Source of the DNA: a virus
Lineage: Duplodnaviria; Heunggongvirae; Uroviricota; Caudoviricetes
Virus record (IMG/VR): IMGVR_UViG_2740892233_000024
Reading direction: 5' to 3' (one strand)
DNA: 24,564 bases
Part shown: piece by piece, positions 9,001 to 12,000 of the stretch
Numbering within the stretch: the stretch's first letter is position 1
Layout of the letters: the number at the start of each line of letters is the position of its first letter
Position numbers: made by a program

Positions 9001-12000
9001 CCTACAGTAAGAGAGTAATTTATATGGATGTGTTATCTGGTATAACTGCCGCGAAACAGGCTTATGATCTGCTGAAGACAATAAAAGAAACCAGAGACGA
9101 TGCTGTTATCGCTAAAGCTATTGGTGATCTACACCAAAGAATAACTGACTTACAGATGCTTAATGCGGAGCTCTCTGGCCTTTATCAGGCCGAGAAGGAG
9201 ATCGCAATGAAGCTTCGAGATGAAAATAGAAAAATCAAGATGTTTGTTGTGCAAGCTGAGAATTATGAACTTCATACAACTGAAGGTGGTTCTGTCGTGT
9301 ATCGACCTAAGAGTCATTCCGATCCTTCTATTCAGCAGCATAACCTTTGTGCACATTGCTTCGGCGAACATAAAATATCGATACTTCAACCAAGCACGGT
9401 TACTATAAAATCTAATGGGTTCTTTGTGCATTCATGTCCTCGCTGTAAGAATGAATACCGGATGTATAGAGCGCCAGACCCTAAGCCTGTATATGTACCG
9501 CCGCTGACAAATTATTAATTTTATTCCTGAAATGGCCTCTTCACCCCCTTACTTTGTCAGGGGGATATCTCCTTCAGTTTTGACCATTCGCCTTAATACT
9601 TTCCTTAAGTCGATGTAAAGTTGAAGGTCTCCATTTGCTGCGGCATCAGCCATTTTTTGCCTGACAAGCAGTAATGTTTCATACGGCTCAATAAGAATAT
9701 CGTCATGAGTAATTAGGTGAAGCGTTGCCGCATCAACTATTCCTAGAGCTGCGCCAAGTATCAAAAATTCCCTGCTATTTTTGTCGCATGAGGAGATAAG
9801 CGTATTTAGCGCATACCTAATATTCTTTATAGCTGTTGTTAATGCTGCAATTTCTTCTATGGCGTCTTCTCCAATGAGCTTTTTAAGCTCATATTTTTCT
9901 TCCTGACCCATAATTACCTCGCCGTCAGTTGTTTTGATTTCCGGTAGCCTGCCGCGTAAATGGCTACGTTTGGCAGGCAAATACTTCCACTGCATTCATC
10001 TGCCTTCTTGCAGCGAAGGCTTCCGAGTGATGCTGCTTTATCTGCTCTGACGCAACCAGAGAGCTTTAGCGCAATTTTTCGTGCCAATCGCTGTTCTTGC
10101 ATTGCCTGTTCACGTTGAGCCTGTCTGCGTGCTCTGCGGCGATTTCTGGCGTTATCGTCAGCCAGATATGTAATGACTACTGTCATGTTGACCTCCGATG
10201 ATTGACTTTGGCGGTGACGCGCCGCGTGCTTATCTTCCGGTTGCCGTCTTGCAGCTGCACTTCACGTCACCCCAAAGCCAACTACTCTTTGGTTCCCGCA
10301 TTTCGGCGGGACAATCCCATCAATGTTAAAGAGCCTGCCAATCTGTTCCGTTTGGCTTCCAGCGTCCTGCTGATGGCTTAAAGATAACTTAGGTTATAGG
10401 TGTGGTCAATAACCTAATTTATATTTTATGGTAAATAGGTTATAAGTGATGGATAACAAAGGTATTTTATTTTTGTAAATGTTGCTGATTGATTGGTGTT
10501 TGAGGGCTTGCGTGCGGGGTGAAGGTGTTACCTTTGGCTTGATGCTTGTCTATGATGAGGATGGTTGATTGGGTGGTGAACGGCAGGAAAAGAAAACCCG
10601 GCGCTGAGGCCGGGTGTTTTTAGTCTTTTCTTTTGCTTAGCATTTCGTCGATTTCTAAGTCAATACGATATTGATCTATTGCTTTTCTCTCGTTTGGGGT
10701 TGGTATTTTATACTGTTCAATTAGATCTGTTGTGTATTTTATTTCATCTAATGTGATTTTTATATCAGAGAGAATCTCTTTTATATCAATTATATGCTCT
10801 TCTTCTTTTGCACGATTAGAGCTATGTTCAATCATTTGAGATAGCTTTTTACTAATGCTTAGCAAAACAAAAAGAATGATGACCAAAACAACAACAAAAA
10901 CTATCAGAAATTCCATTATCCCTCCGCACTTCCGTAAGTCTTCTTCTGATTATCGGTTACCAACTATGAGACGACCAGAATACTCTGCCAATAATCCTTA
11001 CGGTTTCATGAAATTCATCTCTATCCATTACTTCATCCGGGTACTCTTCGCGATTTATTGATCTGATTATCACCGATGTAGGGGTGGCGATTAATGTTTT
11101 TACTCGTAACAAATCAGACTGGCAAATAGCGTAGGTTTTACCATCTCTGATTGTGGTATCTTGCGTGTTAACACCAACAACATCGCCATCGTGAAGCGTT
11201 GGTTCCATGCTTTGCCCTACAACCCTAACTAGCTTGGCTGATCTTTCAGATACTCCCATCTTTTTCAGATAGTGCTTTCTGAAAACCAAAGAGAACTCCG
11301 ATGATTCCTCTAGCTCGCAGCTACCGCTTCCAGCTGAAAGCGAAACGTTAAGAAGAGGCAACGCAACAAACTCGTCATCGTTTCTTTTAATGTCTTCCCA
11401 TACCACAGCTTTTAAAGATGAATCACGGACATTGGATGGTTCTTCATGTGCACCATCCCTCATTTCACCAATACCAGAACTAAGCCATTCAGGGCGCACT
11501 TTTAAAGCATTGGCTAATTCAACCATCTTGCGAGATCCGTTTGTTTTACCGGACGACATCTTCTGTATGGCTGGCTGAGATATTCCAACCATGTCAGCAA
11601 GCTGTGATTGTGATACCCCTGCTGAGCTCATGGCTGCATTTAGTCTTTCTGCGAATGTTTTCATACCCACAAATCTATAACTACGGTTATCCAAAGTAAA
11701 ATAACAAAGGTTATTGCTATTTTTTATAACTTGAGTTATCTTTGGTTATAAGTAATGACCACAAGAGGTATGCTCATGAATTTAGTAATTCAACGAGCCT
11801 TGAAAATTGTCGGTAGCCAAAAGCGCCTTGCCGACAAGTGTGGTGTAACGCAGCCAGCAGTACACAAATGGCTGAAAGGCGGGTTGGTCTCTCCAGAGAA
11901 AGTTACCGCCATCGTTAACGCCACTGGAGGGCAGATCAAGGCTTACGAAATTCGCCCCGATTTGCCACACCTGTTTCCAAAACCGAATCAGGCAGCATAA

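Follow-up and report, generated by a model that had tools for sequence, protein, structure and literature searches.

In the IMG/VR virus record IMGVR_UViG_2740892233_000024 a small gene lies directly behind the prophage repressor gene cI, and this gene, labelled orf98, is the subject of the present analysis. The DNA that was analysed, called the window throughout, has a length of 24,564 nucleotides (nt) and represents the early region of a lambdoid prophage. The open reading frame (ORF) orf98 is located at 10620-10916 on the minus strand, starts with ATG, and encodes a protein of 98 amino acids (aa). It is part of the ORF list, matches PHROG 18389 over the full length, and is annotated in RefSeq as the hypothetical protein WP_000394868.1. 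Between the end of the cI stop codon at 10957 and the ATG of orf98 at 10916 lies an intergenic spacer of 40 nt (10917-10956, minus strand). The Shine-Dalgarno motif GGAGGG was read from the sequence at 10920-10925 (minus strand), and its distance of 3 nt to the ATG is short, but still usable. Downstream of the gene, a bidirectional intrinsic terminator that closes the cI-orf98 transcript was detected at 10587-10615 by scanning and folding. It begins 4 nt past the stop codon, scores on both strands, and consists of a 7-bp hairpin (6 G-C pairs) at 10596-10615 followed by the U-run (UUUUCUUUU); the folding energy is -17.1 kcal/mol (z = -2.75).

The GC content of orf98 is 29.3%, compared to 43.1-43.4% for cI, depending on the start codon used, and 45.5% for the window. 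The GC content at third codon positions (GC3) is 0.25 for orf98 versus 0.37 for cI, and, therefore, the AT bias is not caused by the amino acid composition alone. The scan revealed no terminator in the 40-nt gap, and promoter-like sites around the gap were not more frequent than expected from shuffled sequences (3 found, 4.5 expected). A single candidate promoter is close by, at 10991-10963; its 9 of 12 matches do not exceed what is expected by chance. In an Rfam search no RNA family was detected inside or adjoining orf98. The preliminary description of this DNA had reported the 98-aa reading frame 40 nt past cI, its ribosome-binding site, the terminator directly after it, and an AT-richness contrasting with cI, and each of these features was found again in the ORF list and the sequence.

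The repressor gene cI (10957-11664, minus strand) encodes a protein with an HTH_3 domain (Pfam, 8.5e-07) and a Peptidase_S24 domain (1.6e-17). The most likely start codon is the ATG at 11664, as in RefSeq, which results in a protein of 235 aa. The TTG at 11694 given in the ORF list is probably wrong, because it lies beyond the OR3-like operator at 11677-11690. A pattern search revealed three perfect operators of the consensus ATAACnnnnGTTAT in the right operator (OR) region between cI and cro (11672-11739). They are located at 11677-11690, 11701-11714, and 11726-11739, i.e., they are spaced by 24-25 bp. A -10 element like that of the maintenance promoter PRM, TAGATT, is present at 11677-11672 (minus strand), 7 nt ahead of the cI ATG, which implies a leaderless cI mRNA. 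By analogy with lambda, the OR/PRM-like region would be the promoter of a cI-orf98 operon. The left operator and promoter (OL/PL) region is located at 10381-10466 on the other side of orf98. It contains operators at 10384-10397 and 10409-10422, a weaker one at 10453-10466 (pattern search), and a PL-like promoter on the minus strand found by scanning (TTGACC, 17 nt, TATCTT). The gene is thus situated between cI and OL/PL on the strand of cI, and the earlier assignment to the rex slot stands.

This arrangement has consequences for the expression of orf98. Because the OL/PL region is downstream of its terminator, orf98 is outside the PL operon, and because the OR/PRM region is upstream of cI, it can be reached only from PRM or from the establishment promoter PRE. 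Judged from this anatomy and from the conserved synteny described below, orf98 would be produced in lysogens and during establishment, and its production would end upon induction. Provided that the cI mRNA is leaderless as in lambda, the strong Shine-Dalgarno motif of orf98 points to a translation no less efficient than that of cI. Between the terminator and OL, 136 nt (10460-10595, minus strand) contain, on the transcribed strand, 35% C but only 8% G. This C-rich, Rho-utilisation-like composition may provide a Rho-dependent back-up terminator that shields N from repressor read-through.

A stop-free run of at least 98 codons was present in 1.7% of the mononucleotide shuffles of the 361-nt slot, and by itself the reading frame is modest, even weak, evidence for a gene. 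The ratio of nonsynonymous to synonymous substitution rates (dN/dS) was calculated for comparisons with two homologs of 77-78% identity, one from Citrobacter freundii (locus L003) and one from an unannotated Logan sequencing-run assembly (L005). It was 0.14-0.16 overall and 0.07-0.10 in codons 43-98. The purifying selection, together with full-length homologs down to about 30% identity, shows that orf98 is a real gene, and the tail of the protein is its constrained part.

The family is small. Among 5.8 billion proteins, 11 clusters at 90% identity belong to it, with E. coli and Citrobacter as the only named hosts, and a set of 1.84 billion proteins contained 14 representatives at 50% identity. 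Homologs of 93-126 aa retain the architecture down to about 24-30% identity, and a partial fragment of 53 aa exists. In two scans of a collection of species-representative genomes no confirmed relative was found. [quoted passage not shown] The 601 nt around the gene (10400-11000) are 100% identical to the Shiga toxin (Stx) 1a-converting phage Stx1a_10051 (LC744178). The same cI-orf98 module was also seen in a damaged prophage of E. coli H19 (L002; 1961-3151, 17222-18378, and 20647-21720), in which the integrase gene has an internal stop, the nin region has an IS600 insertion, and no stx gene is annotated past Q. Because of this prophage, the distribution of the cassette extends beyond intact Stx phages.

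Damaged copies were also observed. In a 75-aa copy from E. coli (P0010) the transmembrane helix is replaced by unrelated residues, and strain 3CM, which has this damaged form, matches just the 3' 251 nt of a 401-nt query. In a further form of 93 aa (P0005, E. coli), five tail residues are deleted. Such truncated and internally deleted copies, and the rarity of the gene (1 of 50,697 phage records), would be expected if orf98 were a decaying or hitch-hiking ORF without function. However, this idea is contradicted by the dN/dS values of 0.07-0.16 and by the fact that length, architecture, and motif are retained in seven immunity contexts and at identities as low as about 30%, and it is extremely improbable.

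Next, the surroundings of the homologs were compared. The set contained 42 related loci from outside the annotated databases, i.e., 4 from a look-up of the exact protein, 37 viral contigs, and 1 from a single metagenome scan; two of them (L042 and L044) are two cuts of one IMG/VR contig. Upstream DNA was readable in 41 loci, and in each of them the homolog was found directly 3' of a repressor gene and on the same strand. The window type has a gap of 40 nt, and the six further lineages have gaps of 1-20 nt (12-20 nt in L003, L005, L040, L041, and L045, and 1 nt in L042 and L043); a gap of 97 nt was seen only for a 5'-truncated copy. Purine runs resembling a Shine-Dalgarno motif precede the homologs in five other lineages, too. 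The putative co-transcription with cI that had been proposed earlier is strongly supported by comparison across the 41 of 41 loci and by the gap devoid of terminator and promoter.

The repressors themselves are of seven types, six of which were confirmed as S24 peptidases by Pfam. All Pfam-confirmed repressors but that of L045 also scored for HTH_3, and the repressor of L040 has its own Pfam match. The N-terminal 90 residues of the seven types are only 16-53% identical, compared to 27-96% for the orf98 homologs; the DNA-binding domains are unrelated and the S24 domains divergent. The difference is especially clear for the window and L003, in which the whole cI proteins share 22% and the orf98 proteins 78% identity. 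In L003 and L005, Pfam identified Cro, CII, and N36 family members as neighbours, and the C-terminal domain of their cI presumably resembles that of lambda cI. With this lambda-like domain and these neighbours, the homologs of the two loci sit literally at the lambda rexAB site.

Homology between lineages outside the ORF is restricted to the terminator, to which the three closest lineages add about 10 nt at the Shine-Dalgarno motif. A 28-nt stretch of the terminator is 89% identical to that behind the homologs of L003 and L005. A hairpin and a T-run about 5-20 nt past the stop codon were found in four of five other lineages checked; in the fifth, L041, a hairpin alone is present about 55 nt downstream. 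The GC content of the homologs is 29-36%, compared to 43-48% for the adjoining cI, in all six lineages measured. The slot can also have a different content. In E. coli UTAK-1 (L007, 3124-3465), a cI gene 93% identical to that of the window, within a lambda-like O/P/ren backbone, is followed by a DUF3024 gene in the place of orf98, which shows an exchange of cargo at the slot. Behind a 79%-identical cI present in 50 genomes there is no gene of the orf98 kind. Since homology is limited to the ORF and the terminator, the low GC content is kept, and the cargo of the slot is variable, the Shine-Dalgarno motif, the ORF, and the terminator (about 340 bp) behave as a portable cassette in a variable slot.

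An additional ORF was noticed in L003 (6324-6530) and L005 (6324-6548; both minus strand, locus coordinates). It is conserved, has 68-74 codons, converges on the orf98 homolog, and lies between N and a bidirectional terminator that it has in common with the homolog. The possibility that the spacer at 10400-10620 of the window is a remnant of this convergent gene was rejected, because a tblastn search was negative.

The moron concept of Juhala and Hendrix, as summarised in PMC3594210, offers a frame for these results. Deviant base composition, presence or absence between related phages, and an own terminator are all found for orf98. An own promoter, which also belongs to the concept, was not found, as the gap is only 1-40 nt and has no promoter-like site; the cassette therefore relies on the promoters of the repressor. 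All in all, orf98 behaves like a cargo gene of the rex slot and like an accessory cassette.

The strict linkage to the repressor could also mean that orf98 is part of the lysis-lysogeny circuit, e.g., as a protein that is tethered to the membrane and modulates how stable the repressor is, or how induction or establishment proceeds. It is encoded alongside cI in every lineage, the 1-nt gap in two cases suggests translational coupling, and expression would be expected from PRE as well as PRM, thus including establishment. Lambda RexA and RexB have also been reported to influence the switch (Thomason et al. 2021). However, orf98 travels with seven repressors of unrelated DNA-binding and divergent S24 domains, the N and replication modules differ between the loci, and the same cI allele works without orf98. 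The divergent repressors and differing modules also make a specific phage partner unlikely. A role in the circuit is thus regarded as improbable.

The predicted protein has a simple architecture. One hydrophobic segment was found, at residues 3-21 (codons at 10854-10910, minus strand; FLIVFVVVLVIILFVLLSI), with a maximal 19-residue Kyte-Doolittle mean of 3.67. It is composed of aliphatic and aromatic residues only, plus one Ser. The 76-residue tail is acidic (18 D/E versus 14 K/R), and in helix 42-68 the largest hydrophobic moment was obtained for the heptad angle of 102.9 degrees. The single N-terminal transmembrane helix and the charged, coiled-coil-like tail of the preliminary description were thus both borne out. 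In the AlphaFold2 model (mean predicted local distance difference test score, pLDDT, 82.5) helices span residues 2-38, with a pLDDT of 88-92, 45-68, and 74-96. Alignments, dN/dS, and the model together delimit a conserved helix-Pro-helix tail, codons 43-94 (10635-10790, minus strand), for which a cytoplasmic location is predicted. It carries the family motif IKYTTDxIEKYKLPxxxERxxIDxIRIDxEI, and Y69, P72, D81, and E88 are invariant in 17 aligned sequences, down to 24% identity.

The topology was predicted from the charges around the helix. In nearly all family members E or D is found ahead of the helix and K or R behind it. The residues in front are acidic or neutral (ME, MD, MAD), and those behind include K or R (SISKK, SINKK, SINGK, IYKK, and others). 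According to the positive-inside rule, this distribution predicts an N-out/C-in orientation. Judged from hydropathy, this rule, and the AlphaFold2 model, no more than two residues would be exposed outside, and the conserved tail would be cytoplasmic. Family members have the hydrophobicity of the helix in common, but its sequence varies and lacks polar or small-residue motifs, which speaks for an anchor rather than for the lining of a channel. The conserved acidic tail, held at the membrane, would be the working part of the protein.

Database searches did not connect orf98 with a protein of assigned function. The match to PHROG 18389 (E = 6.4e-62) covers residues 1-98 on positions 1-98 of the 98-position profile, but it is silent on the mechanism, because the family has no assigned function. 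None of the thresholds of Pfam, NCBIfam, and PADLOC was reached. A Pfam scan at E <= 1 returned nine weak compositional matches and neither RexA nor RexB, and with the PADLOC v2 models the sole weak match was a ZorB transmembrane segment (E = 0.017). No match was found among solved folds, and no sequence or fold similarity to HK97 gp15/YebO, P22 SieA, SieB, or T4 Imm. A PDB search with the family profile matched only de novo designed coiled coils, which is a compositional likeness and not homology. A literature search with the RefSeq accession and for repressor-adjacent transmembrane defence proteins yielded nothing on this gene.

Several known classes of small phage membrane proteins were considered and rejected. 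An Rz-like i-spanin, which has an N-in/C-out topology, a place in the lysis cassette, and an embedded or neighbouring o-spanin gene, does not fit the opposite topology predicted here, the location in the immunity region, and the missing gene for a partner lipoprotein; orf98 is about 9.6 kb upstream of Q, and no embedded ORF of at least 30 aa is present on the same strand. A type I toxin or a holin was rejected because the conserved hydrophilic tail accounts for three quarters of the protein. The weak PHROG 6682 match (E = 0.088) and the acidic tail led to the rejection of a membrane organiser that binds DNA in the manner of phi29 p16.7.

The architecture also bears on the idea of an effector of abortive infection, in which the helices and the Ile-rich coiled-coil tail would form an oligomeric pore that depolarises the cell upon a phage trigger, comparable to a viroporin or phospholamban and, functionally, to RexB. 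The slot is that of lambda rexAB, heptad periodicity is a feature of the tail, designed bundles of four to six coiled-coil helices were matched with the family profile, a single gene with a membrane anchor is present, and one distant homolog lies in a defence-island-like neighbourhood. In contrast, the purely aliphatic helix without polar, Gly, or small-xxx-small residues is that of a typical anchor, there is no gene for a sensor partner, and no match to RexA, RexB, or PADLOC models was obtained. The AlphaFold2 model, with a predicted template modelling score (pTM) of 0.29, is uninformative on oligomers. Pore formation is, thus, rather unlikely.

A role outside of phage conflict was considered as well. 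In E. coli, the small membrane proteins MgrB, AcrZ, and SgrT act by modulating host inner-membrane proteins, and orf98 could be a lysogenic-conversion factor of this kind, i.e., a small membrane-tethered regulator of a transporter, of a protease such as FtsH, of a sensor kinase, or of a division protein. The tail is strongly conserved while the surrounding repressor, N, and replication modules vary, which suggests a conserved host target. In addition, the window carries another host-directed accessory gene, encoding an LpxR-like outer-membrane protein, and orf98 is enriched in O26 STEC lineages. However, a general fitness factor would not need an exclusive position behind cI, genes such as bor, lom, and lpxR are usually located elsewhere and have their own promoters, and no similarity to known small regulators was found. 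This role is unlikely.

One distant family member has different surroundings. It was found on a metagenome contig with a GC content of 54.5% (L046), has 123 aa, and is flanked by a remnant of an IS3 transposase gene and by two candidate defence genes, one of the DUF2971/PDC-S31 type (770-1450, plus strand) and one encoding a TOTE-type primase-helicase (1668-3566, minus strand). It is the sole homolog whose repressor context could not be read, as the 219 nt upstream contain just the IS3 remnant. This defence-island-like neighbourhood, a single locus, gives weak support by association to an anti-phage role.

The reading we prefer, with a confidence that falls just short of an even chance, is that orf98 has an anti-phage role and would be expressed in lysogens and act at the cytoplasmic face of the inner membrane. 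By analogy, a block of entry or of another early step is favoured over an abortive infection of the pore type. The proposed course of events would be as follows. The cassette, inserted behind a prophage repressor gene, would be transcribed together with cI from the maintenance and establishment promoters, and, consequently, its product would be made in lysogens and shut off upon induction. One inert aliphatic helix would anchor the product in the inner membrane, and the acidic helix-Pro-helix tail of about 75 residues would face the cytoplasm. There it might bind a conserved host or phage component and thereby block an early step, most plausibly the delivery of the genome across the inner membrane, i.e., superinfection exclusion. 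As the tail is constant while the repressor, N, and replication modules vary, a conserved component of the host, or a phage component of wide conservation, is a more likely partner than a protein of the same phage. It is also possible, with a somewhat more tentative commitment, that orf98 founds a hitherto unrecognised family of single-protein prophage defence or exclusion systems that act via the conserved helix-Pro-helix tail at the cytoplasmic face, and that the linkage to repressors of at least seven immunity types reflects a need for production in lysogeny only.

The functional claim is partly supported, namely by the position, by analogy, and by the one distant homolog beside candidate defence genes. 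With respect to position, the interval between cI and N is a known hotspot that houses rexAB and bstA (PMC8585504). [quoted passage not shown] Several points weigh against an anti-phage role. No sequence or fold similarity to known exclusion or defence proteins was found in the databases searched. With the scant periplasmic exposure that is predicted, orf98 could not meet a phage tail tip in the periplasm, unlike most characterised injection blockers. The tail is strongly conserved and not diversifying, which would fit a housekeeping host target equally well as a part in phage conflict. E. coli carries the gene almost exclusively together with one cI allele and in clonal O26 lineages, and hitch-hiking may account for its frequency there. 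Finally, the defence-island-like neighbourhood is represented by one locus, which is disrupted by an insertion sequence element.

Comparison with known systems further defines the position of orf98. With lambda rexA-rexB it has in common the slot between cI and OL/PL-N, the location on the cI strand followed by a terminator, which would lead to expression from the repressor promoter in lysogens, and a membrane component. It differs in being one gene instead of two between cI and the terminator, and in lacking any Pfam or PADLOC similarity. RexB has four transmembrane helices, whereas orf98 has one and no sensor protein, and, thus, the two-gene arrangement of RexAB, a cytoplasmic sensor and a polytopic membrane protein, is not found. 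HK97 gp15 and P22 SieA resemble orf98 in being small prophage-expressed inner-membrane proteins encoded on accessory-type insertions of deviant GC content, and in the case of SieA also in the predicted cytoplasmic location of the most conserved motif. However, their sequences are unrelated to that of orf98. The gp15 gene is located in the tail operon and has its own promoter, while orf98 relies on those of cI; for SieA, three helices are predicted, in contrast to the single helix of orf98 with almost no periplasmic exposure. A block of DNA entry is known for gp15 and SieA, and for orf98 it would be a putative function.

BstA of BTP1 and its relatives is similar in that a single gene is located directly downstream of a prophage repressor gene, is conserved there, presumably uses the promoter of the repressor, and is followed by a terminator of its own. 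In contrast to the large, soluble BstA, orf98 is a 98-aa protein with a membrane anchor and an acidic tail and without homology to BstA. The BstA paper describes a localisation to sites of phage DNA replication. The last example is DicB from the cryptic prophage Qin, which is also a small prophage protein and sets a precedent for exclusion without periplasmic exposure. It is soluble and acts from the cytoplasm on ManYZ. In contrast to orf98, DicB is not linked to a repressor, and the two sequences are unrelated. DicB is reported to protect E. coli through inhibition of receptor proteins in the inner membrane (PMC6832061). An orientation of almost the entire protein towards the cytoplasm, as predicted for orf98, is an uncommon architecture in a putative exclusion protein.

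The remaining genes of the window follow a lambdoid order, i.e., int (1-1164, minus strand, ORF list), RecT/YqaJ recombination genes, the cIII thermoregulator, N (9914-10186, minus strand, ORF list), orf98, cI, cro, cII, and O, and then a DnaB-type helicase gene, NinB, a Rha/KilAC antirepressor gene, the LpxR-like gene, and Q (20517-21290). The Rfam element Lambda_thermo was detected at 7717-7775 (minus strand, 88.5 bits), and its presence confirms a lambda-type control of cIII translation in this phage. An ORF of 164 aa at 9024-9518 lies on the plus strand, opposite to the surrounding genes of the PL operon. It belongs to PHROG 1244, a family of unknown function, has a coiled-coil-like N-terminal half and a C-terminal CxxC...CxxC motif similar to a zinc ribbon, and looks like another inserted accessory gene. 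Directly after N, a 120-aa ORF is present at 9549-9911 (minus strand), which would have 148 aa from an upstream ATG overlapping N. It matches PHROG 7374 (E = 2.6e-79), also of unknown function, and the sole hint in Pfam, AbiH, was not significant (E = 0.16). The gene for the LpxR-family outer-membrane protein (19166-20125, minus strand; Pfam E = 6.8e-40) is located just upstream of Q. LpxR is a lipid A 3'-O-deacylase, and this gene is probably a lysogenic-conversion gene.

Taken together, the orf98 family is new and uncharacterised, while repressor-linked accessory genes of prophages are already known as a kind. With lambda rexAB and BstA as examples, the cargo of the cI-N interval offers good prospects in the search for anti-phage functions that are expressed in lysogens. 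Among the carriers of orf98 are numerous Shiga-toxin strains of type O26:H11, and also an Stx1a-converting phage. Should the exclusion role hold true, orf98 would shape which phages, including other Stx phages and therapeutic ones, can infect these pathogens, and a very small, easily studied membrane-tethered protein would be added to the mechanisms of exclusion. If it is instead a modulator of a host protein or of the lysogenic switch, it would have a bearing on the physiology of STEC or on the induction of toxin phages.

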